Program-made: the position numbers and the translations under genes | Notes under the pieces: generated by a model | The model's database searches: none | Told to the model about the DNA's origin: nothing | The model's input: only the letters and a program-made list of their open reading frames with translations | In this document: piece after piece, positions 1,251 to 62,151 of the stretch | Layout: each line of letters begins with the position of its first letter | Position numbering within the stretch: position 1 is the first letter of the stretch | Source: Chiloscyllium plagiosum | Lineage: Eukaryota | Direction: 5' to 3' | Assembly (NCBI RefSeq): GCF_004010195.1 | Contig: NC_057753.1 | Span: 3,255,514 to 3,319,513 of the forward strand | DNA: 64,000 nt

Positions 1251-2108
1251 ATGGAGAAATCGTGGAAGTGTGGGGACTGCCAGAAGGGTTTCCGGTCGCC
1301 CTCGGAGCTGGAGACCCACCGGCGGGTGCACACCGGCGAGCGGCCGTTCACTTGCTCCGTGTGCGGGAAGGGCTTCACCCAGTTCCCGATCCTGCTCAAG
1401 CACCAGCGGGTGCACACCGGCGAGCGGCCCTTCGCCTGCTTCATCTGCGGGAAGGCCTTCGCCCAGTCGTGCCACCTGCTGCGGCACCAGCGGGTCCACA
1501 GCGGCGAGCGGCCGTTCGTCTGCCCCCGGTGTGGCAAGGGCTTTGGCCACGCCAACAACCTGCAGCGGCACCAGCGGGTCCACACCGGCGAGCGCCCGTT
1601 TGCCTGCGCCGAGTGCGGCCGGCGCTTCAACAATGCGTCCAACCTGCAGAAGCACCAGCGGGTGCACGCCGAGTCGCGGCCCTTCCCCTGCCCCGACTGC
1701 GGCAAGGCCTTCGCGCAGCTCGCCGGGCTGCAGACCCACCAGCGGGTGCACACCGGCGAGCGGCCCTTCCCCTGCCCCGACTGCGGCAAGGCCTTCCGCT
1801 TTGCGTCCAACCTGCAGAAGCACCGGCGCGCCCACACTGGCGAGTGGCTGTTCACCTGCTCCCGGTGCGGCAAGGGCTTCACCCAGTCCTCCAGCCTGCT
1901 GCGGCACCAGAGCAGCCACGCCGCCGCCGAGCGGCCCTGCCAGTGCGCCGACTGCGGTGGCGCCTTTGCGAGCCCGGCGGCGCTGACGGCCCACCAGCAG
2001 AGCCACGCCGAGGAGCGGCCCTTCGGCTGCGCCGACTGCGCCAAGCGCTTCCGGGTCCTGTCCAAACTGCGGCGGCACCAGCGGGTGCACACCGGCGAGC
2101 GGCCCTTC
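1251..2108 (+). CDS. C2H2 zinc-finger protein (gene A), at least 10 fingers, 3' end lost in N gap
   Basis: ATG in good Kozak context (ggcgccATGG). MEKSWKCGDC followed by 10 CxxC-x12-HxxxH repeats with TGERPF-type linkers. Runs into the gap at 2109. Upstream splice acceptor tttagcag|gctatc at 943-944. Confidence 0.95.
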
Positions 2109-3409
2109 NNNNNNNNNNNNNNNNNNNNNNNNNNNNNNNNNNNNNNNNNNNNNNNNNNNNNNNNNNNNNNNNNNNNNNNNNNNNNNNNNNNNNNNNNNNN
2201 NNNNNNNNNNNNNNNNNNNNNNNNNNNNNNNNNNNNNNNNNNNNNNNNNNNNNNNNNNNNNNNNNNNNNNNNNNNNNNNNNNNNNNNNNNNNNNNNNNNN
2301 NNNNNNNNNNNNNNNNNNNNNNNNNNNNNNNNNNNNNNNNNNNNNNNNNNNNNNNNNNNNNNNNNNNNNNNNNNNNNNNNNNNNNNNNNNNNNNNNNNNN
2401 NNNNNNNNNNNNNNNNNNNNNNNNNNNNNNNNNNNNNNNNNNNNNNNNNNNNNNNNNNNNNNNNNNNNNNNNNNNNNNNNNNNNNNNNNNNNNNNNNNNN
2501 NNNNNNNNNNNNNNNNNNNNNNNNNNNNNNNNNNNNNNNNNNNNNNNNNNNNNNNNNNNNNNNNNNNNNNNNNNNNNNNNNNNNNNNNNNNNNNNNNNNN
2601 NNNNNNNNNNNNNNNNNNNNNNNNNNNNNNNNNNNNNNNNNNNNNNNNNNNNNNNNNNNNNNNNNNNNNNNNNNNNNNNNNNNNNNNNNNNNNNNNNNNN
2701 NNNNNNNNNNNNNNNNNNNNNNNNNNNNNNNNNNNNNNNNNNNNNNNNNNNNNNNNNNNNNNNNNNNNNNNNNNNNNNNNNNNNNNNNNNNNNNNNNNNN
2801 NNNNNNNNNNNNNNNNNNNNNNNNNNNNNNNNNNNNNNNNNNNNNNNNNNNNNNNNNNNNNNNNNNNNNNNNNNNNNNNNNNNNNNNNNNNNNNNNNNNN
2901 NNNNNNNNNNNNNNNNNNNNNNNNNNNNNNNNNNNNNNNNNNNNNNNNNNNNNNNNNNNNNNNNNNNNNNNNNNNNNNNNNNNNNNNNNNNNNNNNNNNN
3001 NNNNNNNNNNNNNNNNNNNNNNNNNNNNNNNNNNNNNNNNNNNNNNNNNNNNNNNNNNNNNNNNNNNNNNNNNNNNNNNNNNNNNNNNCCAGCCAACTCA
3101 TCCTCCTTCCCCCCCCCCCCCCCCCCCCCCAACTCCTCGTCCTATTATTACATTACATGGTTCACTTTCAGTGAAACCCACTCTCCCGCTCTCAGCTCTC
3201 ACGGTCACTTATTCAGCTTCTCCTCTGCCAGTACCAACCACTATCCCCTTGTTCTCCTCCCCTTTCATCTCTCTTTCTACATCTCCATCTATCTCCTTAC
3301 TCCTCCCTCTTCTCTCTCTCTCTCCCTGAATTAACTGGAGACATTGTCTCTCTTAGATTCCCACCGGCTGTTTCTTACAGTAATCATCAACACCCATTTT
3401 GAAATGTGT

Positions 3410-3685
3410 AGGTTAGATTTCCCCTACAGTGTGGAAACAGGCCCTTCGGCCCAACAAGTCCACACCGACCCTCTGAAGAGCAGCCCACCTACATTCGCCT
3501 ACATTTACCCCTGCCTAATGTACCTAACACTCTGGGGCAATTTAGCATGACCTGTGGGAGGAAACCCACACAGACACTGGGAGAATGTGCTAACTCCACA
3601 CAGACAGTCGCCCTAAGGCTGGAATCGAACCCAGGTCCCTGGCGCTGTGAGGCTGCAGTGCTAACCACTGAGCCACCGTGCCGTG
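3410..3685 (-). mobile_element. HE1-type SINE
   Basis: Reverse complement of the 44017 copy with an internal deletion. Confidence 0.85.
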
Positions 3686-4757
3686 TATATTTTTTTATTA
3701 GTACATCTTCATAACTAATTAAGAAAATTACAGTCTCTATTCAGCGCCGATTATCCATCAGTTATTCAGAACCGGGCTGAGCGTGAGTCATTGATTACTT
3801 GGCTGGTCGGCAAATTTGTCAGATTAAGTGGGTCTCTGTGGCCGCGCGAAATGTCTCCCCTGCAGAGCTAATCGGTCTATCTCTGAGATAATGCTCTTTT
3901 CCTACATCAGCCTATGTTTGTAACCAATCTCTGCAAAATGAGATTCCCTCAATCTTGAAGTCTTTGAACTGTAAAAGGTAAAACCACGGGCATTATGGTC
4001 ATACATCAATCCAAGGCTTACAAACAATGGAATGGCCGCAATGAGAAAGAAAAGCATTGGTGGGGGGGGGAGAGGAGTTAGCCCAGTGTCCTGGGACCTG
4101 ATATTGAAAACCTCCGTCAACATCAGTGAGACCTGATGGTCTGGTCGTCAGCAGATCCCTAACTGCATGATCTCGCTCTGTGAGAATCGACTTGCACATC
4201 TCCTGAAGATGTCTACAATTCGCAAAGTTCCTTACCGGCAGCGTTAATACAGCCCGAGATGGCTACTATATAAATACAAATTTATTTTGCGATCGACCGA
4301 TGTTTCAGCTGGAGCACATGCCGGCTGACGGTGGGACCAGACCTCCCAGGATGAACCAAGGGCACCTCCCTTTAGAGGCCACTCAATGAATTGTGGCAAG
4401 TGACCATTTATAGGACTCAAGGAATCAGCCCTTCTCCCTCCTCCTGAGTCATGCAGGCTGAGAACAGACCGTGGAGCTAGCCAATGGACTGAAAGTTACT
4501 TCTCCCACCAACCGGGAAGGGTAACATTTTCAACCCCAATCGTTCTGTCTTTTGTCAAACTCTCTCACGAGATTGCAACAGTGCGTTTATTTCAGAAGCC
4601 CAGCATTGCTTCAAAGTTTGAATTTGTTCTGAGGGGGCTGAAAGGTTCTACTTAAGTATCTTTCCTCCGGCCTGTCAATCTAGGTTAACAATCATGTCGA
4701 GTGGTCCAAGTAGATTGTTCCTTTCAGTGTCCACCCAACTCTGTCACTCTCAAGGAC

Positions 4758-4912
4758 GTTTAATTGGAAGCACTAGCTTTCGGAGCGCTGCTCCTTCATC
4801 GGGTGGTTGTGATGCTCCGAAAGCTAGTGCTTCCAGTTAAACCTGTCAGACTATAACCTGGCGTTGTGTGATTTTTAACTTTATACGCCCCAGTCCAACA
4901 CCGGCCTCTCCA
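4758..4912. mobile_element. Penelope-like terminus, family 2, short inverted arrangement
   Basis: ggaagcactagctttcggagc ... gctccgaaagctagtgcttcc inverted pair. The minus-strand hammerhead at 4771-4805 has a CCGATGA core variant. Confidence 0.65.
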
Positions 4913-10640: not shown

Positions 10641-10642
10641 GA

Positions 10643-13071
10643 CCAGTGAGAGGCCCGACAGAGAGTATTACCCACCCACAACCCAGTGAGAGGCCCGACA
10701 GAGAGTATTACCCACCCACAACCCAGTGAGAGGCCCGACAGAGAGTATTACCCACCCACAACCCAGTGAGAGGCCCGACAGAGAGTATTACCCACCCACA
10801 ACCCAGTGAGAGGCCCGACAGAGAGTATTACCCACCCACAACCCAGTGAGAGGCCCGACAGAGAGTATTACCCACCCACAACCCAGTGAGAGGCCCGACA
10901 GAGAGTATTACCCACCCACAACCCAGTGAGAGGCCCGACAGAGAGTATTACCCACCCACAACCCAGTGAGAGGCCCGACAGAGAGTATTACCCACCCACA
11001 ACCCAGTGAGAGGCCCGACAGAGAGTATTACCCACCCACAACCCAGTGAGAGGCCCGACAGAGAGTATTACCCACCCACAACCCAGTGAGAGGCCCGACA
11101 GAGAGTATTACCCACCCACAACCCAGTGAGAGGCCCGACAGAGAGTATTACCCACCCACAACCCAGTGAGAGGCCCGACAGAGAGTATTACCCACCCACA
11201 ACCCAGTGAGAGGCCCGACAGAGAGTATTACCCACCCACAACCCAGTGAGAGGCCCGACAGAGAGTATTACCCACCCACAACCCAGTGAGAGGCCCGACA
11301 GAGAGTATTACCCACCCACAACCCAGTGAGAGGCCCGACAGAGAGTATTACCCACCCACAACCCAGTGAGAGGCCCGACAGAGAGTATTACCCACCCACA
11401 ACCCAGTGAGAGGCCCGACAGAGAGTATTACCCACCCACAACCCAGTGAGAGGCCCGACAGAGAGTATTACCCACCCACAACCCAGTGAGAGGCCCGACA
11501 GAGAGTATTACCCACCCACAACCCAGTGAGAGGCCCGACAGAGAGTATTACCCACCCACAACCCAGTGAGAGGCCCGACAGAGAGTATTACCCACCCACA
11601 ACCCAGTGAGAGGCCCGACAGAGAGTATTACCCACCCACAACCCAGTGAGAGGCCCGACAGAGAGTATTACCCACCCACAACCCAGTGAGAGGCCCGACA
11701 GAGAGTATTACCCACCCACAACCCAGTGAGAGGCCCGACAGAGAGTATTACCCACCCACAACCCAGTGAGAGGCCCGACAGAGAGTATTACCCACCCACA
11801 ACCCAGTGAGAGGCCCGACAGAGAGTATTACCCACCCACAACCCAGTGAGAGGCCCGACAGAGAGTATTACCCACCCACAACCCAGTGAGAGGCCCGACA
11901 GAGAGTATTACCCACCCACAACCCAGTGAGAGGCCCGACAGAGAGTATTACCCACCCACAACCCAGTGAGAGGCCCGACAGAGAGTATTACCCACCCACA
12001 ACCCAGTGAGAGGCCCGACAGAGAGTATTACCCACCCACAACCCAGTGAGAGGCCCGACAGAGAGTATTACCCACCCACAACCCAGTGAGAGGCCCGACA
12101 GAGAGTATTACCCACCCACAACCCAGTGAGAGGCCCGACAGAGAGTATTACCCACCCACAACCCAGTGAGAGGCCCGACAGAGAGTATTACCCACCCACA
12201 ACCCAGTGAGAGGCCCGACAGAGAGTATTACCCACCCACAACCCAGTGAGAGGCCCGACAGAGAGTATTACCCACCCACAACCCAGTGAGAGGCCCGACA
12301 GAGAGTATTACCCACCCACAACCCAGTGAGAGGCCCGACAGAGAGTATTACCCACCCACAACCCAGTGAGAGGCCCGACAGAGAGTATTACCCACCCACA
12401 ACCCAGTGAGAGGCCCGACAGAGAGTATTACCCACCCACAACCCAGTGAGAGGCCCGACAGAGAGTATTACCCACCCACAACCCAGTGAGAGGCCCGACA
12501 GAGAGTATTACCCACCCACAACCCAGTGAGAGGCCCGACAGAGAGTATTACCCACCCACAACCCAGTGAGAGGCCCGACAGAGAGTATTACCCACCCACA
12601 ACCCAGTGAGAGGCCCGACAGAGAGTATTACCCACCCACAACCCAGTGAGAGGCCCGACAGAGAGTATTACCCACCCACAACCCAGTGAGAGGCCCGACA
12701 GAGAGTATTACCCACCCACAACCCAGTGAGAGGCCCGACAGAGAGTATTACCCACCCACAACCCAGTGAGAGGCCCGACAGAGAGTATTACCCACCCACA
12801 ACCCAGTGAGAGGCCCGACAGAGAGTATTACCCACCCACAACCCAGTGAGAGGCCCGACAGAGAGTATTACCCACCCACAACCCAGTGAGAGGCCCGACA
12901 GAGAGTATTACCCACCCACAACCCAGTGAGAGGCCCGACAGAGAGTATTACCCACCCACAACCCAGTGAGAGGCCCGACAGAGAGTATTACCCACCCACA
13001 ACCCAGTGAGAGGCCCGACAGAGAGTATTACCCACCCACAACCCAGTGAGGGGCCCGACGGAGAGCATTAC
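10643..13071. repeat. 40-bp minisatellite, about 60.7 copies
   Basis: Unit acccagtgagaggcccgacagagagtattacccacccaca. There are 59 identical copies from 10681 to 13040, plus a partial first unit and a degenerate last unit. Confidence 0.99.
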
Positions 13072-15469: not shown

Positions 15470-16010
15470 GAGCGCGCACGCCTCAGGTCACAATGGGGGG
15501 GGGGGGTGGGACCCCTGATTGACAGCCGTTGCGGACCAATAGACAGAGCGGTGGCGGCCGGCCCTCCGACCAATCAGAGCCAGACCCGGGCGGGTCGCAC
15601 GCGACGGACCCCCCCACCACCCTGCGCCCGACTCGCCGCGCAGGCGCAGTTGCCGGTGGTGACCGTTGCTGGGGCCGCCCGTGGGAAGCCGTCGGAGATT
15701 GTGGACGGTGAAAGGTGAGGAATGTCACGACCTGCGGTGGACGAGGCAGTTTCCTGGAGGCTGGGAGGTGCTTCCGATCGGAATGGCAGGATCGCGGTCC
15801 CGGTCCGCGGCCGACCAGGACAAGGCCGCGGATCCGAAGCCGGGCAGTGCCCGGTGGTGGTGGTGGTGACCGCCATCTTAATTGGGGGCAAAGTCTGGCA
15901 GGGCGCATGCGTAGCATTGTCCCCCTGGCCTGGAGAGGATGGGGTGATGGCCGCCATTTTAATTGGGGGCAAGGTCGAGCAGGGCGCATGAGCAGTGCAT
16001 TCTCTCTCCC
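15470..16010 (+). promoter_or_regulatory. CpG-island promoter and non-coding exon 1 of gene B
   Basis: CpG-rich. CCAAT boxes at about 15536 and 15570, NRF1-like GCGCAGGCGCA at about 15638, splice donor aag|gtgagg at 15714/15715, and two YY1-like CCGCCATnTT motifs. Confidence 0.75.
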
Positions 16011-17790: not shown

Positions 17791-18353
17791 TCGTTTAGAG
17801 ATTCTCAATCTGCAGAGAGGAGCTCAAGAACCGAAGCCATTGCAGAGGAAAGGCAGGGAGGTGAAACCCAGGAAAGAAGGAATGTGGTGGTAATGGATTT
17901 GGGTTTCAGTCCAAGGAGGAAGGAGAGCGTGTGGGTTCTGGGATTTATAACTTTGCGCAAGAAGTGAAGGGGCAGTCTTCCATAAAAACTCGAAGTGTGT
18001 GCTCTGAATTTCTACCCTGTCCTGACAATGATGACATTTGTAAACATAGTTTATCCTTTTACAGGCTTTGAGAAGGGAAAGATTGCGAGATGCACGGCTG
18101 GGACCAAACAGCACCTCGGGATCTGAATATCATTGGCCTTTGAGTTTGGAGGGAGGAACGCTTGGCCGAAAGGGAAGATTTAAAACCTCAGTGTGAGTGG
18201 AAAAGCACGAAAACGTATACACACCCCCCTGAGTGACACTGTTCCAACAAACAGACTGTGGAAAGGAGTTTAAAACTACTACACCCTGAAAATCATATTG
18301 CACTCTTGATAGTGGGGAGAGATCATATATGTGTTGCGTGTGAACAAAGCATC

Positions 18354-19196
18354 ATGGTCAAACCGTTGACATGTGGGGACTGTGGCAAACGATTCGATTA
18401 CCCATCCCAGCTGGAAATTCATCGCCGCAGTCACACTGGGGAGAAACCATTTGTCTGTTCAGTGTGTGGGAAGGAGTTCACCAAGACAACCTGCCTCATG
18501 TTACACCAGCGCATTCACACCGAGGAGAGGCCGTTCAGCTGCACTCGCTGTGAAAAGAGGTTCATTTCTTCGTCTGACCTCAATCAGCACCAGCGGGTTC
18601 ACACCGGTGAGAGACCATTCATTTGCTCCCAGTGTGGGAAGGGATTCACAAAGTCATCCAACCTGGTGACTCACCAACGGATTCACTCTGAGGAGAAGCC
18701 ATTCCACTGCACTTACTGCGGGAAGCGTTTCAAATATTTACACAGCCTCGAAGAACACCAAAGGGTTCACACCGGGGAGAGGCCGTTCACGTGCTCTGTG
18801 TGTGGGAAGGGATTCACTCAGCCATCCAGTCTGGTGAGGCACCAGCGGGTTCACACCGGGGAGAGGCCGTTCAGCTGCTCCGTGTGCGGGAAAAGCTTCA
18901 GGCAGACGTCTGCCCTCATCACGCACCAGCGGGTTCACACTGGGGAGAAACCGTTCCCCTGCTCGGTGTGCGGGAAGGCCTTCACTGTCTCATCCACCCT
19001 CAAGGCACACCAGCAAACTCACTCTGCGGAGAAGCTCTTCGACTGCTGTCACTGTGCTAAGTCCTTCAGGTGTTCATCTGCTCTGCTCGCGCACCAGCGG
19101 GTTCACACCGGAGAGAGACCATTCATCTGCTCCGTGTGCGGGAAGGGATTCACTCGCTCCTGCAGTCTGGTCACGCATGAGCGACTCCATAAATAA
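18354..19196 (+). CDS. C2H2 zinc-finger protein (gene B), 10 fingers, about 280 aa
   Basis: First in-frame ATG at 18354 (atcATGG); the ORF track start at 18258 is GTG. Ten C2H2 fingers, ending HERLHK-stop. Acceptor ttttacag|gctttg at 18063-18064. Confidence 0.95.
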
Positions 19197-19622
19197 CTAG
19201 GGGGATTGGACTCTGCTGTCATTTATGTTGGCAAGCACATCCGGGCTTATTTGTCTGACACCTTTTGTATGTGCTGTGAGAGCAATCGGTACAACCCATT
19301 GGAGTTTAATATTCTGGATACGTCACTGATATTTAAAGCAGTGCTTTCTCACCTTCAAGATATTTGTGCTCCTTCACGTTAACTGAAGAATTCTTAATAG
19401 GAACTAATTTACAATAATATTGTGAACTTTTAGTTCAATCCTGAACGGATCTTCGGTGCAAAATCTATGATTCAGTGTCTGAAAGATGCCACTCATTAAC
19501 ATCTCCAATGAGAAAGTGCTGATTAATCCTTGCTGACAATTCTCACTGACCTGTGCACTCTTCAATGTGATACCTCAGGTTCACAGTTATCGAAAAGCAA
19601 TTCTGTGAAATGGACACCTCGC

Positions 19623-20496: not shown

Positions 20497-23008
20497 GGTG
20501 GCACGGTGGCTCAGTGGTTGGCACTGCTGCCTCACAGCACCAGGGACCCGGGTTCGATTCCAGCCTCGGGCGACTGTCTGTGTGGAGTTTGCACGTTTTC
20601 CTCGTCCATGCCAACCAGATATCCTAACCTAATTGAGTTCCATTTGCCAGCACTTGGCCCATATCCCTCCTTACCCTTTCTATTCATGTGCCCATCCAGA
20701 TGCCTTTTAAATGTTGTTATTCCGCCAGCCTCCACCAATTCCTCTGGTCGCTCATTTCATACACGCAGCACTGTCTGGCCGTTGTACGTCCCTTTTACAT
20801 TTTTCCCCTCTCACCTAAACAAATACCTTCTAGGACATTCCAGCTCAGTCCAGGCCCTTCGGCCCTCGATGTTGAGCTGACCTCTGGAACCAATCCGAAG
20901 CCCATTTATCCTACACTATTCCATTTTCATCCATATGTTTATCCAATGACCATTTAAATGCCCTTAGAGTTGGCGAGTCCAATCCTGTTGCAGGTAGGGT
21001 GTTCCACACCTCTACTACTCTCTGAGTAAAGAGCCTACCTCTGGCCTATATCTATCACCCTTCAATTTAAAAGAGGAAAAAGGCTCTCACTGTCCACCCT
21101 GTCTAACCCTCTGGTTATCTTATATGTCTCAATGAAGTCACCTCTCAACCTTCCCTCGAACAAAATCAGCCTCAATCCCTCAGCCATTCCTCACAAGACA
21201 TTTCCCTTCATACCAAGCCTTTCTCTCTAGTTCTGGACCACCCCTCCCCCCCCCACCCCCTCAGGGAAACGACCGTGTCTATGTAGAACATAGAACAATA
21301 AAGCACAAAACAGGCCCTTCGGCCCTCAATGTTGCACCGACCTGTGAACTAATCTAAGCCCATCCCCCTCCACGATCTCATCATCATCCGTATGCTTATC
21401 CAAGGACTGTTTAAATGCTCTTAATATGACTGAGTTAACTATATTGGCAGGCAGTTCATTCCACATCCTTATCACTCTCTGAGTAAAGAACCTGCCTCTG
21501 CCATCAGTCTTAAATCTATCACCCCTCAATTTGCAGCTATCCCCCCTCGTACAAGCTGACGTCATCATTCTAGGAAAAAGACTCTTACTGTCCACCCTAT
21601 CTAATCCTGTGATCATCTTGTATGTCTCTATTAAATCTCCTCTTAGCCTTCTTCTCTCCCATGAGAACAGATCCAAGTCCCTCAGCCTTTCCTCATAAGA
21701 CCTTCCCTCCAGACCAGGCAACATCCTGGTAAATCTGCTCTGCACCTTTTCCAATGCTTCCACATCCTTCCTGTAATGGGGTGACCAGAACTGTACACAA
21801 TATTCCAAGTGTGGCCGCACCAGCGTTTTGTATAGTTGCAGCATGACATACTGCTCCGGAACTCAATCCCTCTGCCAATAAAACTTAAGAACCATAAGCC
21901 TTCTTAACAGCACTATCAATCTGGTGGCAACTTCCAGGGATCTATGTACATGGACACCAAGATCCCTTTGCACATCCACCCTACCAAGAATCTTTCCATT
22001 GATCCAGTAATCTTCCTTCCTGTTATTCTTCCCAAAGTGCATCACCTCACATTTATCTGCATTGAACTCTATTTGCCACCTCTCCACCCAATTCTGCAGT
22101 TTATCCAAGTCCCCCTGCAACCTGTAACATTCTTCCACACTGTCCACTACTCCACCGACTTTAGTGTCGTCTGCAAACTTACTAACCCATCCACGGATGC
22201 CTGCGTCTAAGTCATTTATAAAAATGACAAACAGCAGTGGTCCCAAAACAGATCCTTGTGGCACATCACTAGTAACCGGACTCCAGGCTGAATATTTTCC
22301 ATCAACCAACATTCGCTGCCTTCTTACAGAAAGCCAGTTTCTAATCCAAACTGCTAAATCCCCCTCAGTCCCATGCCTCCGCATTTTCTCCAAAAGCCTA
22401 CCACGAGGAACCTTACCAAAGCCTTTACTGAAGTCTATGTATACCACGTCAACTGGCCGTACTCTCTCCATGCCCCTCATGATTTTATAAACCTCTATAA
22501 GATCACCCCTTACCCTCCGACGTGCCAGGGAAAACAGCCTGAGCCTATTCAGCTTCTCCCTACAGCTCTCCCTATAGCTCCATCCCTAGCAACACCCTTG
22601 TAAATTGTCGTGAGAGAGGGAAATGCAGTGGATGAGTTGTCAGTAGGTATTTGATAAGGTGCTGGACAGCAAGCTCATTGATAAAATCAACCTCGTGATA
22701 TTAAAAAGAGTGGGGCAGTGTGGATAGAAAGTTGTGGCAACCATGAAAAATGGAGAGTGGTGGTTTTTGAATGTTCTTCAAACCAGAAGGATGGAAACAG
22801 TGCTGTCAACAGGGTCAATGATGGGTTCACTGCTCTTCCCAACATTTGAGAAATAATCTGGACCAGATGGGCTGAGAAGTGGCAGATGGAGTTTAATTCA
22901 GATAAATGCGAGGTGCTCCATTTTTGGAAAGCAAATCTTAGCAGGACTTATACACTTAATGGTAAGGTCCTAGGGAGTGTTGCTGAACAAAGAGACCTTG
23001 GAGTGCAG
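20497..23008. mobile_element. Cluster of a SINE head and CR1 fragments, including a well-preserved minus-strand RT at 21285-22450
   Basis: DVVYIDFSKGFGKVP...[20 protein letters not shown]...SKFADDTK and LYKTLVRPHLEYCVQFWSPH. Confidence 0.9.
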
Positions 23009-28990: not shown

Positions 28991-29464
28991 GCTATCAGAA
29001 GTGGAGGCTTTACAAAGAGGAAACCGAAACCAGTCATTGGAGAGTTGCTCGATTTCTTATAAGCCGAGTATCATGGAGTGAAGGAACACCGTTTACAGTG
29101 TGGAGGAACGATACATGGTTTTCTGTCAACGGTGAGGTTTCAGCCAGTTATCTGACCTGCTGTCACACTGGAGAGAAATCATGGAAGTGTGCAGATTGTG
29201 AGGAGTAGTTCCGATCCCTAGTGGACCTGGAAATACATTGACACGTTCAGAGTGGGGAGAGGCTGTCCACTTGCATTTGTGTGGAAAGGGATTCACTCAG
29301 TTCTCCCAACTGCTGGCTTAACAGCGAGTTCACACTGAGGAGCGATCATGGTTAAATTCAGCGCGAGTTAACACTGGGAGAGGCTGTATGTCTAACCGGA
29401 GGGTGGCAAGGGATTCACTATGTTATTGTCTCACCTGTTGAGGCATCAGCGAGTTCCCAAGTGA
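28991..29464 (+). pseudogene. C2H2 zinc-finger pseudogene (C)
   Basis: Family acceptor ttcacag|gctatc. Translates in pieces as GEKSWKCADCEE*FRSLVDLEIH*HVQSGER, CGKGFTQFSQLLA*QRVHTEE and GKGFT...HLLRHQRVPK*, with stops and frameshifts. AATAAA follows at about 29548. Confidence 0.85.
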
Positions 29465-33914: not shown

Positions 33915-34345
33915 GGGTTGACATGATGTTTGCTTTGAAATTTGTGACTGTAAACCTTCCCCTTCCGATATCCTGCAAAAGAAGGGGAGAAGGACCAGAC
34001 AGAAATTGCACTGCACGGCTTGGAGGAAAATCGAGACGTTGCAAGAAAGCACCAAGGGCACAGTCTCTCAGCTGCAGTGCAGCCCAGGAGGGAGCAGGTG
34101 CCCCGGCGCAGGCGCAGTTTAGCAGCAGCGGCCGACGTCATGGGGCGGGGCGGCTCCCCGAGCCGGTTGCCCTGGAAACCGTTGTCTCGGCGAAGCGAGG
34201 TGGGGGAAAAAACAATGGCTAGGGGCGGGGCTCCTGCCTGCAAGCTGGAACCCCAGGACGTCACCGCCGGGCTCTGCGACTCCGACTTGGCTGCTTCAGG
34301 CAAGCCCCGCCCGCCATTGTTGGACGTCACAATGCGGACGGACAA
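33915..34345 (-). pseudogene. Orphan ZNF gene head (promoter, exon-1-like segment and acceptor) with no coding exon
   Basis: 34090-34335 aligns by eye with the E/F promoter at 49540-49812. The family acceptor ttttgcag|gatatcggaagggg is at 33974-33973, and the sequence is then cut off by Penelope termini. Confidence 0.7.
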
Positions 34346-35783: not shown

Positions 35784-35844
35784 AATATAATTTTCTAATG
35801 ATATGCATTCTCCACTTCTGCCAATCTTTTAGGCTCCAGGTCCA

Positions 35845-36120
35845 TAATAACGAAGACTCACTGCGGGAAACGCTTTAAAATTTCCAGGGAGCTGAGGCGC
35901 CATCAATGCATTTACAATGACAAGACCCTGTTCAGGCGTTCTTACTTGGTGGGTGGATGGGTTCAGAATGCCAACGAATTAACGCTGACAAAAGTGCACG
36001 TGGTATTCACTGAATGCTCGGCCCTGCTCAGATACCAATGAGTTTGTAAGTATTTAAAGAGACTGGGTTCTGCTGGTAACCACACCCAGGACTGAAACCG
36101 ATTCATTCTGACCGTGGGGA
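35845..36120 (+). pseudogene. Highly decayed 3' end of a zinc-finger gene (D) with family 3' UTR
   Basis: Translates HCGKRFKISRELRRHQCIYNDKTLF and FTECSALLRYQ*VCK. It is followed by ctgggttctgctggtaaccacacccaggactgaaacc, which resembles the 3' UTR of gene F. Confidence 0.65.
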
Positions 36121-45968: not shown

Positions 45969-46708
45969 TTACTTGTCTCAGTGCAAATATCGTCATCCCT
46001 TGCACATTCATCTCCCTCATTCTCTGACCATTCCTTGTGAGTTGAATTCTCTCCCGATCATTCCAAGTCACGTTCCTGTCTGGACGACGTGTCACTGTCT
46101 TGATGATGTCACAATGTTGTCTCGGTCCCCAGGCCACATTCACCATTTGACGTCTGGCTGTTTTCTCAAGGGGTTGCACGTGTTTGGGACCTGCTCTTCA
46201 GTTCATCATGAAATTTCCCCAAGTTCACAGCTTCAAAGGGAGCACATGATGTCTACCCACTCACACCGGTATCCCAACCTCACATTCTGAATTTGAAGGC
46301 CATCTTGACCAAAACAGCACAGTGACGGGTCTGTCTGTCCGGCCTGAAAATTTGCTCACCCTCCCCTCGGTTGCGCTGAGATTTCAGGTAGATGTCAGAC
46401 TGTCAGATGTGGTTTTTTTGACAGGACGAGTCTGTCTTCTTTATTTCAGACCGTCAGACTAGGGTTGTTCCCTCTGCAGCTGGGGGAGAGATTGCGTCAA
46501 GCTATGAAATTAGGACAAATTTTCCCTGAACCAAAGAGAGACAGCTTTACAGATCTCCCCAGCTCAGTCCGCCAACATGAACCCGTCAACTGCTACTTCA
46601 ATACGCTATTGCGTTTTCCTGCACAGATTTCTGTCTGAGGCCTGTTGCACTGTCCCAACGTAAGCTTCAAGGACAACAACACTATCCACCGGATCTGACC
46701 CCTTGTCA

Positions 46709-47635
46709 TCACTTGTGAACTCTCTGGTGTGCCCGTAGGTTCGATGACTGAGTGAAGCCCTTTCCACACTCAGTGCAGATGAATGGCCTTTCCCCAGAGT
46801 GAACCCGCTGGTGTGTCAACAGGCTAGATGACTGAGTGAAGCCCTTCCCACATGTGGAGCAGACGAAGGGCCTCGCCCCGGTGTGGACTCGCTGGTGGAT
46901 TAATAGGCTGGACGAATCCTTAAAACCTTTTCCGCAGTCACAGCAGATGAATGGCCTCTCATTGGTGTGGACCCGCTGGTGAGTCAGCAGGGTGGAGGAC
47001 AGAGTGAATCCCTTCCCACATTCAGAACAGATGAACGGCCTCTCCCCAGAATGAACTCTCTGATGTATCTGGAGTTTGGACAGCTCCGTGAACCCCTTCC
47101 CACACTCGGCACAGGTGAACGGCTTCTCCCCGGTGTGAACATGCTGATGTGTTTGCAGGTGGGACAGCTGAGCGAATCCCTTTCCGCAGGCAGAGCAGGT
47201 GAAAGGCTTTTCCCCAGTGTGAACCCGATGGTGTTTCTGCAGATTGGACAGAATAGTGAACGCCTTCCCACACACAGAGCAGGTGAACGGCCTCTCCCCC
47301 GTGTGAACACGCTGGTGCATCTGGAGGTGGGATAACAAAGTAAATCCCTTCCCACACGTCGAGCAGGTGAACGGCCTCTCCCCCGTGTGAACACGCTGGT
47401 GTGCTTGCAGGTTGGATGATCGAGTGAATCCTTTCCCGCACTCGGAGCAGGCGAACGGCCTCTCCCCCGTGTGAACACGCTGGTGCATCAGCAGGTTGGA
47501 CGAATCGCTGAATCCCTTCCCGCACACGGAGCAGGTGAATGGTCTTTCCCCGGTGTGACTGCGGCGATGAATCTCAAGCTCAGATGGGGCTTTGAAGCCT
47601 TTCCCACAGTCCTCACACTTCCACGGTTTCTCCAT
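46709..47635 (-). CDS. C2H2 zinc-finger protein (gene E), 11 fingers, 308 aa
   Basis: [10 protein letters not shown] start, 11 fingers, ends HQRVHK-stop. Putative intron 49489-47969 (gcag|gtgagg ... ttacag|gatatt). Confidence 0.96.
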
Positions 47636-48449
47636 GCTGACCTTCTATCTGTCCGGGTTTGACGATCAGGTAAAATATCATCCACAACCCCTCTAATGGT
47701 TTTTCTGCTGTGAACAGGGCAATACTATTCTAGCCCTGTAACCAGTTAACGTTCACAGCACTGAAACAATGTTGACTTCAGTGGTGAGCCTCCGTGCTAG
47801 TTGAATCAGGATGATGGTTGACAGCTTCTGAAGCAGTGAGGACAAGAATGATCATTCTCCTTCAGAAGATACAGAGGCCAATAAGTCTTGATGAAGACAG
47901 TGACTGTCAGATCTTGACAGGCTGGTTGGCTTGAGAGTTCTGTCTTCAAACCCTCTCCATCTAATATCCTGTAACATATTACAAGAGTAAATACTGTCAG
48001 TACAGCCCACAACCTCAGAGGGCAATTCAAGTTTTCGTGAAACGGCCTCCCATCTTTTGTTCGCAAACATGGAAAATTTACATCTCACACACTCTCCCTC
48101 TGCAAGGATGTGCAGGTTAGGGGAATTGGCCATGCTTAATTGCCCATAGTGGTCAGGGATGTATACGTTAGATGCATTAGTCCGGCGTAATTATTGAGTA
48201 ATAGGGGAATGACTCTGAGTGGGTTACTCTTTGGTGGAGGAGTTGTTGCGCTTAAGGGCCTATTTCCACACTTCTAATTCCAAAAATTCTAATTCTACCT
48301 CAAGTTCATGCTCTCTACTCTCACAAAGGGACTGATCCATGCTGTTTAATGGATGCTCACTCATCCTTTCTCTGTCTGGGACGCAGAGACCACACACACA
48401 CAGAAAACCAAGAGGAGGACAGTTCTGTGAATATCAAAGAAAGAAAGTT

Positions 48450-49429: not shown

Positions 49430-49950
49430 CCGATGCTCCGTGCAGTGTGCACCCTGCGCTGCGCGAAAGCGACCCTGCCCGGCCCTCACCTGCAACACAA
49501 AAGCAGCAGCGGCTGGAGAAGTGGGGGGGGAAGCAGAGCTGTACGGAGCAGGCGCAGTTGCGGCAGACGGGGAAGGGAGGAGCTGCCTCTCGCGCCGGTC
49601 CGGCAGCCGGTCGCCCTGGAAACCTTTGTCTCCGCGATGAAGTAGCGAGGGGGGGAAACAATGGGAAGGGGTGGAGCCACCGTGTCCCGAGCGCGCAGCC
49701 TGGAACCCCGAGGAGCACCACCCAACCCGGCTGTTCCTATTGGCTGCTCCACACAGACTTCACAAACCTTGCAGACTCCACCCCCCCCCCTCGTGTTCAA
49801 CGTCACAATGAGGAAGTTGCCCCATTCGAGCGATTACTTCCTCCTCTGTGCAACCAAGAGTCCTCTTTGCATTTCTCTCCTCACTTGCAGTACATGAAGG
49901 CACAGGAAGTGATTCCAGGGAAGGAGCGTGCTCTGCAAAGGTTGGTTCAG
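49430..49950. promoter_or_regulatory. Bidirectional CpG-island promoter between genes E (-) and F (+)
   Basis: CpG-rich, with outward-facing splice donors at 49489 (-) and 49951 (+). Contains ATTGG at about 49739, CGTCA at 49801, GCAGGCGCAG and ETS-like GGAAGT motifs. Confidence 0.75.
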
Positions 49951-50839
49951 GTATGCCTATCTCTCTTTAAGGCATTAACACTTTTCCTGTCAGCTTGATA
50001 CATCGGTTTCTCCGGCTAAGGCGATGACCGCTTGCCAGATGTTCACAGTTGGGGGATTTCTGCAAAGGATGGCTCAGGGTTTAAGGGACAGTAAATTGGA
50101 GCGTCCAATTCGTCCCAGCCTCCCTCTGTGTCCCCGCAGCCTTGCATGTTGACATCCTTCAAATGCCATCTAATTTCGTTTTGAAATGATTTCGATTCTC
50201 CTTCACTTCGAGCACAAGAGTTTTGTAAATTTGTTTGACAGGATACTTGAAAGGCAGGATTTGCAGGATCAAACCTCAAGGCCGGACAGTCACTCGACCT
50301 GTGTGATGCGATATCATCAAATAGGTCGAATGTGGACCTGTCGATCAACATGAATCAGTACCTTTTATAAGAACGGGGACAGTGTATATTAGGCCAGCAG
50401 TGTAATAATAGAGGGAGAGTGTGCAGGATATAAATTTACATATTTTGGAGAATGAGCGTGGAAAAAATATTGTTCAATTGAAATCTGAATTTCAACCTGA
50501 ACTGGTAGTAACGTCTTTGTGATCTTTTACAGGACGATTTAAAGACTGAGTACTCAAACCACACGTCATGCAAATGTGTGACATATCTGGGATCCGAATA
50601 TAGTTGGCCTTGGAATCTTAAAGGAGAAATGCTTGTCTGTTCTTCCTGTTTCAAAATGTTTTAAACGTCACTGTGCCTGGGACAGCGAGAGTGCTCCAGT
50701 GAGGTAACTGTGGGAAGGAGCTTTAACTATTTATGCAGTTGCACTGACTGAAAGCACATTTTGTTGAAGCAATGTTTCTATGTAAGGATGGGGCTTTAGC
50801 TCATTATTGACCCTGGACATACACAAGGACATCTGCACC

Positions 50840-51598
50840 ATGGAGAAACCATGGAAATGTGAGGACTGTGGGATCGGCTTCAAAGTTCCATCTGAACTGG
50901 AGATTCATCGACGCAGTCACACTGGGGAACGGCCATTCACCTGCTGCCAGTGTGAGAAGAGATTTGTTAATTCATCCACCCTGCTGAGACACCAGAGGGT
51001 TCACACTGGGGAGAGGCCATTCACCTGCTCTGTGTGTGAGAAGAGCTTTAGTCAGTTTTCCAGCCTTTTGAAACACCAGCGAGTTCACTCTGGGGAGTGG
51101 CCTTTCACCTGCTCTGTGTGTGGAAGAGGATTCAGTGCCTCATCCAGCCTGTTGACACACCAGCGGGTTCACACCGGCGAGAGGCCATTCAACTGCTCTG
51201 AATGTGGGAAGGACTTCAGTGATTCGTACAGCCTGCGGAGACACCAGCGAATTCACACCGGGGAGAGGCCGTTCACCTGCTCTGTGTGCGGTAAGGGATT
51301 CGTTCAGTCATCCGAGCTGCAGAGGCACCACGTCTCTCACACCAGCGAAAGGCCTTTTCGGTGCTCGGACTGCGGTCGCAGCTACAAAACCTCTCGGAAC
51401 CTGATGCTGCACCAGCGAATTCACACTGAGGAGAGACCGTTCAGCTGCTCTCACTGTGCAAAGAGATTTATAACCTCGTCCAACCTCCGCAGACACCAGC
51501 GTGTTCACACAGGGGAGAGGCCGTTCGTCTGCTCTGTGTGTGGGAAGGGATTTAGTCAGTCATCTGGGCTGCGGAAGCACCAGCGAGTCCACAAATGA
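50840..51598 (+). CDS. C2H2 zinc-finger protein (gene F), 9 fingers, about 252 aa
   Basis: gcaccATGG start, [10 protein letters not shown], 9 fingers, ends HQRVHK-stop. Putative intron 49951-50532 (cag|gtatgc ... ttttacag|gacg). Confidence 0.96.
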   Translation: MEKPWKCEDCGIGFKVPSELEIHRRSHTGERPFTCCQCEKRFVNSSTLLRHQRVHTGERPFTCSVCEKSFSQFSSLLKHQRVHSGEWPFTCSVCGRGFSASSSLLTHQRVHTGERPFNCSECGKDFSDSYSLRRHQRIHTGERPFTCSVCGKGFVQSSELQRHHVSHTSERPFRCSDCGRSYKTSRNLMLHQRIHTEERPFSCSHCAKRFITSSNLRRHQRVHTGERPFVCSVCGKGFSQSSGLRKHQRVHK

Positions 51599-51924
51599 TG
51601 ACAGTGCTCGGCTTCTGCTGTTATTGCGTCTGTTGATCACAACCGGGACTGAACCATGCTCAACCTGAAAGGGCGGTCAGCACTGTTATCTCAGAGTCAG
51701 GAGATGGTGGATAGGAGAGCCACTCCAGAGACCCACATCATCCACCATTCCATGTTCAACGTTCCCGGTGGTGGTGGATCATTTCACGTGAGACTTTGCT
51801 CAGCTGATACTGAGTTGGAGGCAGGGGCCATCTTGTAAGGGCGGGGTTGGATTGGTTAGGCCTGTATCCATTGGAGCTTAGAAGAATGACAGGTGACCTT
51901 TTGCAACATGTGAGATCCTGAGGG

Positions 51925-54832: not shown

Positions 54833-56535
54833 TGTCATAGAGAAACAGACCCTTCGGTCTAACTCATCTATGCCAACCAGATAGCCTAACCCAATCTAGT
54901 CCCATTTGCCAGCATCCGGCTCATATCCCTCTAAATCCTTTCTATTCATATACCCATCCAAATGCCTCTTAAATGTTGTAATTGTACCAGCCTCCACCAC
55001 TTCCTCTGGCAGCTCGTTCCATACACACACCACCCTCTGCATGAAAAGTTGCCCCTTGGGACTCTTTTATATCTTTACCCTCTCACCCTAAACCTATGCC
55101 CTCTAGTTCTGGACTCCCCGACCCCAGGGAAAATACTTTCTCTATTTATCCTATCCATGCCCCTTCATGATTTTATAAACCTCAATAAGATGCTCCAGGG
55201 AAAACAGCCCCAGCCTGTTCAGCCTCTCCCTATAGCTCAAATCCTCCAACCCTGGCAACATCCTTGTAAATCTTTTCTAAACCCTTTCAAGTTTCACAAC
55301 ATCTTTCCAATAGGAAGGAGACCAGAATTGCACGCAATATTCCAACAGTGGCCTAACCAATGTCCTGTACGGCCACAACATGACCTCCCAACTCCTGTAC
55401 TCAATACTCTGACTGATAAAGGAAAGCATACCAAACGCCTTCTTCACTATCCTATNNNNNNNNNNNNNNNNNNNNNNNNNNNNNNNNNNNNNNNNNNNNN
55501 NNNNNNNNNNNNNNNNNNNNNNNNCATCCAAATCATTTATGTAAATGACAAAATGTAGAGGGCCCAGCACCGATCCTTGTGGCACTCCACTGGTCACAGG
55601 CCTCCAGTCTGAAAAACAACCCCCACCATCACCCTCTGTCTTCTACCTTTGAGCCAGTTCTGTATCTAAATGGCTAGTTCTCCTTGTATTCAATGAAATC
55701 GAAATTTGCTAATCAGTCTCCCATGGGAAACCTTGTCGAACGACTTACTGAAGTCCATATAGATCACATCTACTGCTCTGCCTTCATCAATCCTCTTTGT
55801 TACTTCTTCAAAAAACTCAATCAAGTTTCTGAGACATGATTTCCCACCCACAAAGCCATATTGACTATCCCGAATCAGTCCTTGCCTTTCCAAATACATG
55901 TACATCCTGTCCCTCAGGATTCCCTCCAACAACTTTCCCACCACCGACATCAGGCTCACTGGTCTATAATTCCCTGGCTTGTCTTTACCGCCCTTCTTAA
56001 ACAGTGGGCAACATGTTTGCCAACCTCCAGTCTTCTGGCATCTCACCTGCAAGCTTACTAACTGCACCTCCTATGTTCACATCCCCCAATCATTTATTTC
56101 AGTGATGAAAAGCAGAGGACCCAGCACCGATCCTTGTGGCACTCCACTGGTCACAGGCCTCCAGTCTGAAAAACAACCCACCACCACCACCCTCTGTCTT
56201 CTACCTTTGAGCCGATTCTGTATCCAAATGAAGTCCATATACATCACGTCCACTGCTCTGCCCTCATCAATCCTCTTTGTTATTTCTTCAAAAAACTCAA
56301 ATCAAGTTTGTGAGACGTGATTCCCACACACAAAGCCATGTTGACTATCCCTAATCAGTCCTTGCTTTTACAAATACATGTACATCCTGTCCCTCAGGAT
56401 TCCCTCTAACAACTTGCCCACCACTGACATCAGGCTCACTGGTCTGTAGTTCCCTGGCTTTTCCTTACCACCTTTCTTAGATAGTGGCACCATGTTAGCC
56501 AACCTCCAGTCTTCTGGCACCTCACGTGTGACTAT
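54833..56535 (-). mobile_element. CR1 ORF2 fragments with a repeated RT segment
   Basis: GNYRPVSLMSVVGKLLEGILRD occurs twice (55690-56067 and 56368-56530), and [11 protein letters not shown] occurs twice. Confidence 0.9.
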
Positions 56536-59945: not shown

Positions 59946-59966
59946 ACTGTTCATTATAATAGATCG

Positions 59967-60117: not shown

Positions 60118-60132
60118 GTTAATTATAATAGA

Positions 60133-60640
60133 TCGCCCTATTATAGGAAAGATGTGGATGCTTTGGAGAGGTTTCAGAGGAGGTTTACCAGGATGCTATC
60201 TGGAATGGAGGGCTTATCTTATGAAGAGAGGTTGACTGAGCTTGGACTTTTCTCATTGGAAAAAAGAAGGAAGAGAGGGGACTTAATTGAGGTGTACAAG
60301 ATAATGAGAGGCATAGATAGAGTTGATAGCTAGAGACTTTTTCACAGGGCAGAAATTGTTAACACAAGGGGTCATAGTTTTAAGCTGTTTGGCGGAAAGT
60401 ATAGAGGGGATGTCAGAGGTGGTTTCTTTACGCAGAGAGTTGTGAGAACATGGAATGCGTTGCCAGCAGCAGTTGTGGAAGCGAGGGCATTGGGGATATT
60501 TAAGAGACTGCTGGACACGCATATGGTCACAGATATTTGAGAGTTCGTACACTAGGTTTACCTTACATGAGGATCAATGGTCGGCACAACATTGTGGGCT
60601 GAAGGGCCTGTTCCGTGCTGTACTGTTCTATGTTCTATTA
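60133..60640 (+). mobile_element. CR1 3' fragment
   Basis: SPYYRKDVDALERFQRRFTRML...RGDLIEVYKIM. Confidence 0.88.
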
Positions 60641-60689
60641 AAGAATAGGATCATGGACTAAGCTCAAGCTTAGCATGACATACAGTAGG

Positions 60690-61180
60690 AGAATCATAGA
60701 ATCCCGACAGTGCAGGGAGAGCCCATTCAGCCGACGCCAATTCTTCAAAGAGCACTCTGCCAGCCTATCCCCATAAACCCACATTTACCATCGCTAACCC
60801 ACCTAACACAATATCAGGCAAAATAGCATGTCCGATTCACCTAACACACACATCTTTGGACTGTGGGAAGAAACGGTGGCTAAGTGGTTAGCACTGCTGC
60901 CTCACAGCACCAGGGTCCCAGATTCGATTCCAGCCTCGGGCCACTGTCTGTGTGGAGTTTGCACATTCGCCCCTCCCGCGTCTGTGTGGCTTTCCTCTGG
61001 GTGCTCTGGTTTCCTCCCACATTCCAAAGATGTGCAGGTTAGGGTGAATCGGCAGTGCTAAATTGTCCCTAGTTGTTAGGTGCATTAGTCAGGGGGGTGG
61101 GTGGGTTACTCTTCGGAGGGTCGGTGTGGACTGGTTGGGCCGAAGGGCCTGTTTCCACACTGTAGGGAATCTAATCTAAT
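60690..61180. mobile_element. Two adjacent HE1-type SINEs (partial - at 60690-60870, + at 60872-61180)
   Basis: V-domain matches on both strands. Confidence 0.8.
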
Positions 61181-61365
61181 CAAGCAAAGATCCAAATCCA
61201 TTAAAAAGATTTGACAGATTATTTAACACAGCCGATTTATTTAACATTTACCGAGGATGTTAACATTTATAACTGGGCTGGAGTTTATTAACCTGAACAG
61301 CAAGCAATCCCGATGTACACAGATATGTGCTGGATGTGATTCACAGCAAAATCCAACTGCTGTCA

Positions 61366-62151
61366 TCACTTGTGAACATGCTGGTGTCTCAGCAGGTGAG
61401 ATGTCCGATTGAATTTCTTCCCACACTCCGAGCAGGTGAACGGTTTCTCCCCGGTGTGAGCCTGCTGGTGTCTCAGCAGGGTGGAGGACTGAGTGAATCT
61501 CCTCCCACACACTGTGCAGATAAAGGGCTTTTCCCCAGTGTGAACTCGCTGATGTTCAGTGAGTTGGGATGTTCGCCTGAACCCAGTCCCACAGTTAGTG
61601 CACCTGAACGGTTTCTCCTCGGTGTGAACGCGTTGGTGGGTGACCAGTGCCCCAGAGCTTTTGAAGCACTTCCCACAGTCTGGGCATTTAAAGGGTCTCT
61701 CTTCGGTGTGAACACGTCCGTGGTGCATCCGCTCCCCAGAGCTTTTGAAGCACTTCCCACAGTCCGGACACTTAAAAGGCCTCTCCTCGGTGTGAACGCG
61801 TTGGTGGGACATCAGATCACTGGAACTCCTACAGCACTTCCCACAGTCTGCACACTTAAAAGGTCTCTCCTCAGTGTGAATCCGCTGGTGATTCAGCAGG
61901 CTGGATGACTGAGTAAAGCCCTTCCCACACGCACAGCAGGTGAATGGCCTCTCTCCGGTGTGATTCCGTCGATGGGATTCCAGTTCAGACGGGTAACTGA
62001 ATCCCTTCCCACAGTCCCCACATTTCCATAGCTTCTGCCCAGTGGGGCTGCACTCATGTCCCGAAAGGCTAGGTGGTCGACTGAAGTCTCGTCCACACCC
62101 ACAACACATGTACGGTTTCTCCGCCCTGTGAACGGTGGTCGTTCCTTTCAT
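61366..62151 (-). CDS. C2H2 zinc-finger protein (gene G), 1 degenerate plus 8 intact fingers
   Basis: ATG at 62151 ([14 protein letters not shown]). A degenerate finger (CCGC...HECSP) precedes [23 protein letters not shown]. Ends HQHVHK-stop. Acceptor tttcacag|gatgta at 62254-62253. Confidence 0.93.

Follow-up and report, generated by a model that had tools for sequence, protein, structure and literature searches.

Introduction

The KRAB-ZFPs of tetrapods and the FiNZ-ZNFs of cyprinids are clustered, lineage-specific families of poly-C2H2 zinc finger genes, in which a constant N-terminus is combined with diversifying finger arrays; their function is to bind transposons and silence them via a corepressor. 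FiNZ is a cyprinid-specific acidic sequence of 28 residues. Both KRAB and FiNZ are described in PMC10547256 as non-finger domains encoded by a separate upstream coding exon. A finger itself can also serve as the constant module. The N-terminal finger of Drosophila CLAMP is reported to bind MSL2 via helix positions +5, +8, +9 and +12, and mutation of +1 weakens the binding (PMC9226498). According to PMC12774644, a single N-terminal C2H2 finger of the dipteran CGx-Phi type (IMZF, Mzfp1) acts as an interaction module in proteins without BTB, ZAD, SCAN or KRAB; these fingers need an extra adjacent beta-strand and are described there for Diptera only. In the account of PRDM9 given in PMC3388066, the first array repeat is a boundary repeat unlike the homogenised internal ones.

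Here we describe a cluster of shark C2H2 genes which is likewise lineage-specific, with a constant N-terminus and diversifying arrays.

Results

Composition of the gene cluster

The window analysed, a stretch of 64,000 nucleotides from Chiloscyllium plagiosum, holds five C2H2 genes (A, B, E, F and G) and pseudogene C, and a distinctive lead finger is common to all of them. With 8-11 fingers per gene, TGE(K/R)P-type linkers and matches to Pfam PF00096 and PF13465, the genes belong to the tandem C2H2 (Kruppel-type) class. The finger-bearing features were the following:

1251..2108, plus strand: coding sequence of gene A, 10 fingers, running into an N gap; GC3 0.95
1263..1331, plus strand: lead finger of A
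18354..19196, plus strand: coding sequence of gene B, 10 fingers; lead finger 18366-18434; HK-stop
29073..29464, plus strand: pseudogene C, G-type start with finger 0; frameshifted
29182-29250, plus strand: lead finger of pseudogene C, interrupted by stops
35805..36080, plus strand: remnant D, decayed fingers and a 3' tail similar to the tails of other genes
46709..47635, minus strand: coding sequence of gene E, 11 fingers; lead finger 47623-47555; HK-stop
50840..51598, plus strand: coding sequence of gene F, 9 fingers; lead finger 50852-50920; HK-stop
61366..62151, minus strand: coding sequence of gene G, finger 0, lead finger, 7 more fingers, HK-stop
62112-62047, minus strand: degenerate finger 0 of G
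62028-61960, minus strand: lead finger of G

All six finger sequences quoted in the initial annotation (A, B, C, E, F and G) were located where it had placed them, and the HK-stop noted there closes the four complete genes (B, E, F and G). Gene A, which had been counted as intact, is not shown to be so, since after 10 fingers it enters an N gap at 2109-3088. The lead finger had been taken as the first of its array; this is not strictly so, as a degenerate finger 0 precedes it in G and C and decayed earlier fingers lie ahead of it in the MEKP-start genes. The cluster is best explained as a shark birth-and-death group of finger-only C2H2 genes.

Upstream exons and effector domains

The features found ahead of the coding sequences are listed below:

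945, plus strand: acceptor of A, a single in-frame stop 19 codons ahead of the ATG; leader otherwise open
15600..15714, plus strand: CpG island with the candidate promoter and first exon of B, the exon having no ATG; a donor follows 15714; approximate 5' end
15640, plus strand: shared promoter motif of B, within the candidate promoter and first-exon stretch; predicted from sequence
18065..18353, plus strand: leader of B, starting at the splice acceptor; decayed fingers; 3 in-frame stops
33917..34330, minus strand: fossil promoter and acceptor resembling those of E, not followed by a finger array
47636..47968, minus strand: leader of E, starting at the acceptor and holding 6 in-frame stops
49490..49720, minus strand: candidate first exon of E, which has no ATG; a consensus donor follows 49490; approximate 5' end
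49819..49950, plus strand: upstream exon of F; a run X5 contig connects it to 50533
50533..50839, plus strand: leader of F, containing decayed fingers, 5 in-frame stops and 8 upstream ATGs
62252, minus strand: acceptor of G, a single in-frame stop ahead of the ATG

The genes that start with MEKP carry decayed earlier fingers in the 5' leader, and their start ATG lies inside a former linker. In gene F, a contig of run X5 (probable RNA) splices the upstream exon 49819..49950 to 50533; runs X1 and X5 were guessed to be RNA, and the exact GT-AG join argues for splicing. This exon begins a 62-codon upstream ORF, which is out of frame with the fingers, and with nine upstream ATGs, those of the upstream exon included, the translation of F is not assured. 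In gene E, a contig of run X1 (probable RNA) ends at 47967 with 44 letters unplaced; X1 sequence spans 49532-49685 of the candidate first exon, and the join of this exon to the leader is predicted. Read-backed splicing is limited to F and to the acceptor of E, the structures of A, B and G having been drawn from sequence. A further raw-read run, X15, was sampled at about 2 in 100; the sequence recovered was mostly repeat-derived, with 99% running on into unlike sequence, and gave no splice information.

In all five genes the acceptor is followed by in-frame stops (A 1, B 3, E 6, F 5, G 1), which block the fusion of upstream sequence to the fingers. The layout of KRAB and FiNZ genes, whose effector is joined in frame to the fingers from an exon farther upstream, was thus not found, and no usable upstream coding exon was seen for E and F, so that the absence of an effector claimed earlier was not refuted. 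In agreement with that claim, Pfam gave no KRAB, SCAN or BTB domain in any of the five window proteins (for E, among the best 25 of 29 families), and in the precomputed domains KRAB (PF01352), SCAN (PF02023) and BTB (PF00651) were listed for none of the 28 named chondrichthyan matches. A FiNZ sequence, as judged by length and not by a profile, has no room in the four residues ahead of the lead finger of A, B, E and F. The extra beta-strand of the CGx-Phi fingers was not found in the sequence either, the same four residues preceding the finger in these MEKP-start genes and a canonical linker following it. The window proteins look finger-only.

Two further possibilities were rejected. A read-through tail was considered because some shark gene models continue past the HK-stop into a shared tail; in the window these tails hold indels and stops. 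A shared upstream peptide was dismissed since neither B nor E has an ATG in its candidate first exon.

Conservation of the lead finger

The lead finger had been described as near-identical between the genes. It is more alike than expected by chance, but it is not invariant, the identity between genes being 61-91%. Overall it was 73% identical (10 pairs), as against 55% for internal fingers (737 pairs) and 62% for finger 2. The lead finger has six non-structural positions that do not vary; in a control in which one non-first finger was taken from each gene, the mean over 45,360 draws was 3.1, and 1.5% of the draws reached 6. The extra conservation is confined to the helix. At the other post-Cys2 positions the lead finger of the window scored 0.60 and finger 2 0.66 (permutation p=0.70), and outside +1, +2, +5 and the contact sites the values were 0.67 and 0.73 (21 arrays).

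The helix had been given as PSELE. Pro, Ser, Leu and Glu are indeed kept, but +3 is variable (Gln in B; Lys, Leu and Arg in other sharks), and since the lead finger varies at -2, -1, +3 and +6 the motif is P-S-x-L-E. Pro+1 and an acidic +3 had been read as a sign of poor DNA binding; both also occur in internal fingers of these genes and in fingers of the solved Zfp568 chain, and they do not mark a finger as incapable of binding DNA. The unusual residue of the lead finger is the Glu at +5. In pseudogene C, Pro+1, Ser+2 and the two Arg residues are no longer present. The lead finger was modelled a single time for self-association, with no alignment used; the ipSAE values of 0.05 and 0.04, against a mark of 0.32, count neither way.

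Contact positions were more conserved in finger 1 (0.31) than in fingers 2 and 3 (0.15 and 0.16), which leaves room for DNA binding by the lead finger; within the window the values were 0.33 for the lead finger and 0.03-0.10 for the others. These values would suit a shared nucleic-acid anchor, in which the lead finger would recognise RNA, a DNA shape or a half-site common to the family and the remaining fingers would contribute specificity, as would the canonical zinc ligands, hairpin Lys and linker, the Tyr-1 found in 16 of 26 database copies, and the solved Zfp568 fingers, which carry Pro+1/Ser+2 and Glu+3. We consider such an anchor improbable, however: positions -1 (S, Y, A, V, Y) and +6 (T, I, I, I, S) vary in the window, +3 switches between acidic and basic residues across sharks, and the mean charge of the helix is -1.3, as compared with +0.5 in internal fingers.

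Constraint at the codon level

Positions +1, +5, +8 and +9 of the outer helix (P, E, R, R) were identical in all five genes, with varied codons at all four. Only 8 of the 45,360 control draws of non-first fingers matched at these positions, a fraction that is not a clean p-value because these four were chosen, following the CLAMP paper, when Pro+1 and Glu+5 had already drawn attention. Between genes, 48% of the synonymous sites of the lead finger differ, and its whole-finger dS was 0.77 (6 pairs, the GC-rich A left out). At -1, +3 and +6 the dN/dS was about 0.8 (0.84), these values being derived from 4-5 genes and 23 codons. In the internal fingers dN/dS was 1.1-1.3 at contact sites, with 1.33 at -1, +3 and +6 vs 0.37-0.39 elsewhere, as calculated on paralogous repeats with no formal selection test; the base-contact residues of the array diversify, as in the KRAB-ZFPs and FiNZ-ZNFs. 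The outer face of the last finger, which is also an array boundary, was unconstrained (pN 0.37). When its constraint was compared with that of the other fingers, a check proposed in the initial annotation, the lead finger proved more constrained within the sample at hand, which is not genome-wide. The data support protein-level purifying selection on the face of the lead finger that points away from the DNA.

Inheritance only, with one or two templates, slow shark evolution and a lead finger that stays in register between paralogues, would also make the fingers alike. The decayed upstream fingers, the acceptor, the promoter motifs and the HK-stop are common by descent, and the framework is conserved to the same degree as in finger 2. 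Yet with 48% of the synonymous sites different and the flanks near random, the four outer positions show no replacement, and they include three of the residues that pseudogene C has lost. The leaders are 59-68% identical between genes (57-60% when shuffled) and the 3' tails score 0.54 against 0.50, falling to background farther out; this decay means that recent copying does not explain the conservation of the lead finger. Thus we hold the explanation by inheritance to be very improbable.

Occurrence in sharks and elsewhere

The lead finger stands first or second in the array in seven named shark species. With a scoring matrix built from the window sequences alone, 25 of 236 chondrichthyan fingers were high-scoring, all at array position 1 (20) or 2 (5), in a sample biased toward the lead finger since the database copies were retrieved by words from it. 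Among 3,007 other fingers there was a single high scorer, in a JGI protein with shark-type sequence. Pro+1 together with Glu+5 occurred in 1 of 3,006 other fingers, and Glu+5 in 31 of 3,006 fingers from outside the chondrichthyans and in 1 of the 219 remaining shark fingers. Of the database copies 25 of 26 have Glu+5, counted over all 28 named chondrichthyan proteins with the window rows left out; the one miss is most likely an internal finger of P0073. An earlier tally of 31/31 left out P0073, P0177 and P0178 and took in five window fingers and P0147. Sharks differ in the charge at +3 (of 26 copies, E in 8, Q in 5, K in 4, L in 4 and R in 2). Arg+8 is present in 16 of the 26 copies, and Arg+9 is common across all fingers (2,201 of 3,006). 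In the skate protein P0178 the helix motif is retained and the hairpin is another one.

Metagenomes scanned with a DNA pattern gave no loci, and a protein scan gave 25 generic loci, at most about 50% identical in the main match, which were not used. Only generic C2H2 clusters were returned from the ESM Atlas. None of the four window proteins tried is present in the protein collection, and six relatives were singleton clusters. The search with long proteins returned mostly many-finger tetrapod proteins, which were used as background. In the main texts searched, mostly of papers outside subscription, no description of the shark family or of the lead finger was found.

The sequence pattern could be explained by pure structure, if the lead finger were an end-cap that, having no finger ahead of it, is adapted to folding and remaining soluble by itself and needs no partner. 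Pro would lie in the first helix turn, Glu+5 would pair with Arg+8/+9, and a polar residue would stand in place of the Leu found at +5 in 80 of 148 internal fingers. Residues three or four apart in a helix can form salt bridges; Glu+5 stands three and four residues ahead of Arg+8 and Arg+9, a spacing that would permit them. At the boundary such a finger would escape the shuffling of the internal 84-bp repeats, and the dS between the lead finger and the internal fingers of its own gene (1.98) exceeds that of the internals among themselves (1.07), indicating no exchange between them. The first repeat of PRDM9, as presented in PMC3388066, is likewise aberrant and set apart; it is, however, truncated, lacks a cysteine and belongs to one gene, whereas the shark finger keeps its four zinc ligands and occurs in many paralogues. 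Other observations do not fit an end-cap, which we regard as possible but rather unlikely. In 265 non-shark arrays the first finger lacks such a cap (Pro+1 in none, Glu+5 in one), the G-type genes keep the signature behind finger 0 (5 of 25 high scorers are second), and the last finger is unconstrained although it too is a boundary.

Discussion

The outward face of the lead finger is fixed while its DNA-reading face drifts, and it may therefore be a docking site for a partner protein. We give about even credence to this reading as a protein-docking finger, which is drawn from sequence comparison. The constraint on the outer face would then come from protein binding. The idea of a constant protein-interaction finger put forward earlier is in keeping with this constraint, but not its supporting argument that the PSELE helix is unsuited to DNA.

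Like the CLAMP finger as described in PMC9226498, the lead finger is a classical finger at the N-terminal end with conserved +5, +8 and +9, and its helix has a conserved outer face and atypical residues at the base contacts. CLAMP is a single insect gene, in which fingers 2-7 bind the DNA, and homology is not claimed; unlike the finger of CLAMP, the shark lead finger is joined directly to finger 2 by a canonical linker and belongs to a multi-gene family.

The gene layout, the pattern of constraint and the place of the lead finger at the array start are observed. In the proposed mechanism each gene has a single coding exon, preceded by a leader made of decayed fingers and by an upstream exon which contributes nothing to the finger protein. 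The fingers past the lead finger would read DNA and diversify. The lead finger would have largely given up base reading and would present a fixed outer face, made of Pro+1, Glu+5, Arg+8 and Arg+9 with the Trp-x-Cys-x-Asp-Cys hairpin, to a putative partner common to the family, which may be a chromatin cofactor or another family member. It would thus act as a constant N-terminal module made from a finger of the array itself. In this sense the family may be seen, by analogy, as a shark counterpart of the KRAB/FiNZ system, with the difference that in sharks nothing in frame comes from the upstream exon and a canonical finger, located in the array exon, forms the constant part.

If the lead finger is only an end-cap, the result is a modest note on the evolution of finger arrays. 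The docking reading is directly testable, as the lead finger is a 23-residue bait with a ready control in the form of Glu+5/Arg+8 mutants. The finger is also a family marker by which to count shark zinc-finger genes that are labelled in databases only as 'zinc finger protein 239-like' or 'uncharacterized'. We suggest, as a doubtful but not negligible proposal, that sharks, which apparently lack KRAB-ZFP expansions, may possess a transposon-silencing family in which a finger of the array was turned into a corepressor-recruiting module; this would add a third solution to those of KRAB and FiNZ, one that may predate the split of sharks and rays.

Gene inventory and structure

Five C2H2 open reading frames (A, B, E, F and G) were found in the window. 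These and the related decayed copies are as follows.

From 1251, + strand: gene A, 10 fingers, then interrupted by an N gap (2109-3088)
18354-19196, + strand: gene B, 10 fingers
About 29073-29464, + strand: pseudogene C
33917-34330, - strand: fossil promoter and acceptor, a copy of E's, with no finger array behind it and repeat sequence adjoining directly
About 35805-36080, + strand: remnant D
47635-46709, - strand: gene E, 11 fingers
50840-51598, + strand: gene F, 9 fingers
62151-61366, - strand: gene G, 8 fingers and a degenerate finger 0

The nearest named relatives are shark proteins. The lack of KRAB, SCAN and BTB domains, reported in the initial annotation, was confirmed, as Pfam gave matches of zinc-finger or zinc-ribbon type only (in the case of E, among the best 25 of 29 families). 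The finger exons start at a common acceptor, 230-350 bases upstream of the lead finger (the near-constant finger at the array start). In all five genes the stretch from acceptor to start codon contains one to six in-frame stops, so that an upstream exon using this acceptor cannot add a domain. The leader of gene A is open in frame for 82 codons before its single stop.

In case of F, a single 453-letter contig of run X5 maps to 49819-49947 and 50530-50864, consistent with an intron at 49951-50532 bounded by GT-AG, and in the DNA-like run X11 one contig is continuous across 49912-50560, the region of this intron. In run X1 one contig begins at the acceptor of F with 106 extra letters, while another stops at that of E with 44 letters unplaced; X1 and X5 are guessed to be RNA runs, X5 from a related organism. 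The upstream exon of F opens a 62-codon reading frame which is that of decayed fingers and is out of frame with the intact ones, and neither E nor B has an ATG in its candidate first exon. The 5' leader of F (49819-50839) contains nine upstream ATGs, which may strongly damp its translation. Thus the finger-only status is well supported for F and likely for E; for A, B and G it is a prediction from sequence alone.

E and F are arranged head to head with about 100-150 bases between their first exons, and share a short promoter (49490-49950) with CCAAT boxes and a motif which we take to be X-box-like. An 11-base motif is repeated at 15640, 34108 and 49548, and a second promoter motif occurs at 34324 and 49800. 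A 40-bp tandem repeat with strong AT skew (60.7 copies, 99% identity) occupies 10643-13071, and the spacers are filled with SINE-like repeats and reverse-transcriptase-like ORF fragments, presumably of CR1 type (21326-22585, 55277-56070 and many shorter pieces). The GC3 of gene A (1251-2108) is 0.95 vs 0.61-0.69 in the other genes. Fingers 3-5 of G (61624-61854, - strand) are nearly duplicates of one another and form a distinct type; in finger 4 the core Leu is replaced by Arg. The short tail after the HK-stop is homologous between genes (19194-19260, 46650-46711, 51596-51660, 61310-61368); it is treated as coding in some database models without the stop, and is decayed in the window.

Constraint on the lead finger

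The lead finger had been called invariant. It is indeed more alike between the window genes than finger 2 or internal pairs (73% identity vs 62% and 55%), but its identity varies between 61 and 91%. The excess is confined to the helix; the remaining positions after the second Cys are conserved about as much as in finger 2. In a dN/dS comparison without the GC-rich A, the whole lead finger (dS 0.77) had a ratio of 0.22, lower than finger 2 (0.48), the last finger (0.30) and internal pairs (0.33). At the base-contact positions -1, +3 and +6 of the lead finger the ratio was 0.84. The outer-face positions +1, +5, +8 and +9 (Pro, Glu, Arg, Arg) showed zero replacements in all five genes, with varied codons at every one; non-first-finger draws were likewise fixed in 8 of 45,360 cases, a value qualified by the choice of the four positions after the data were seen, guided by the CLAMP paper (PMC9226498). 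Since the leaders and 3' tails have decayed until their identity is close to that of shuffled sequence, and most of the signature is gone in pseudogene C, the selection acts on the protein.

The leaders hold recognisable decayed fingers, A, B, E and F have their start ATG in a former inter-finger linker, and an additional, often degenerate, finger 0 is kept in G, C and many database proteins. The lead finger is therefore the first intact finger and not the ancestral first.

Distribution of the motif

Among the 236 fingers of 28 named chondrichthyan proteins, a scoring matrix made from the five window lead fingers set apart 25 (scores 24-44 vs at most 8.5 for all other fingers scored). As the relatives were retrieved using words from the lead finger, they indicate in which taxa and where in the array it occurs, but not how often. 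All 25 are first or second in their array. One unnamed JGI protein was the sole high-scoring exception outside this set, and Pro+1 together with Glu+5 occurred in 1 of 3,006 other fingers. The motif was present in Mustelus, Scyliorhinus, Cetorhinus, Carcharodon, Heterodontus, Chiloscyllium and Hemiscyllium (three copies being truncated or without a His), which we place in four orders. In Heterodontus, the long models probably fuse neighbouring genes and hold it at most once per array. A skate protein carries the helix motif on a different hairpin, and the motif is absent from the single sawshark protein in the set (P0073). A bird finger (fragments P0146, P0148, P0164, P0182, P0186, P0200) has the hairpin and Glu+5/Arg+8 in common with the shark lead finger and lacks Pro+1 and Trp (score 6-8.5 vs 24-44); the likeness is possibly due to chance, the fragments having been retrieved by shared words.

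Possible function of the lead finger

The earlier argument that proline and acidity disfavour DNA binding proved weak, since Pro+1 and Glu+3 also occur in internal window fingers and in the solved Zfp568 structure, presumably a DNA complex. The informative pattern is which helix face stays fixed. The N-terminal finger of CLAMP was reported to bind MSL2 via +5, +8, +9 and +12, on the helix side facing away from the DNA, and to bind it less well when +1 is mutated (PMC9226498); +5, +8 and +9 are also without replacement in the lead finger of the five window genes. A fly family lacking other effector domains is described as using single N-terminal fingers for dimerisation (PMC12774644). We infer that the fixed outer face would dock a partner protein common to the family, and we give this about an even chance. 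A structural end-cap would suit the same residues, as Glu+5 can pair with Arg+8/+9, but the pattern is missing from 265 first fingers of other arrays and is kept even behind finger 0, making this role somewhat unlikely. A nucleic-acid anchor shared by the family fits the pattern less well than either docking or capping and is improbable; plain inheritance, which also fits less well than these two, is more improbable still.

At the contact residues of internal fingers, divergence equals or exceeds that at synonymous sites (dN/dS 1.1-1.3), as would be expected of a family tracking changing targets. Zinc-finger number has been reported to track retroelements across animals (PMC10547256), in a main text with no mention of sharks, chondrichthyans or cartilaginous fish. 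In the literature searched, no description of the shark family or its lead finger was found. The family belongs to neither the KRAB-ZFPs nor the FiNZ-ZNFs, but by analogy it may work like one of them, as initially proposed; that its lead finger would recruit a corepressor for transposon silencing is a rather doubtful extension. The lineage-specific lead finger with split constraint in finger-only shark genes is real; the docking mechanism has precedent in other fingers, and by analogy with these it may operate in sharks.
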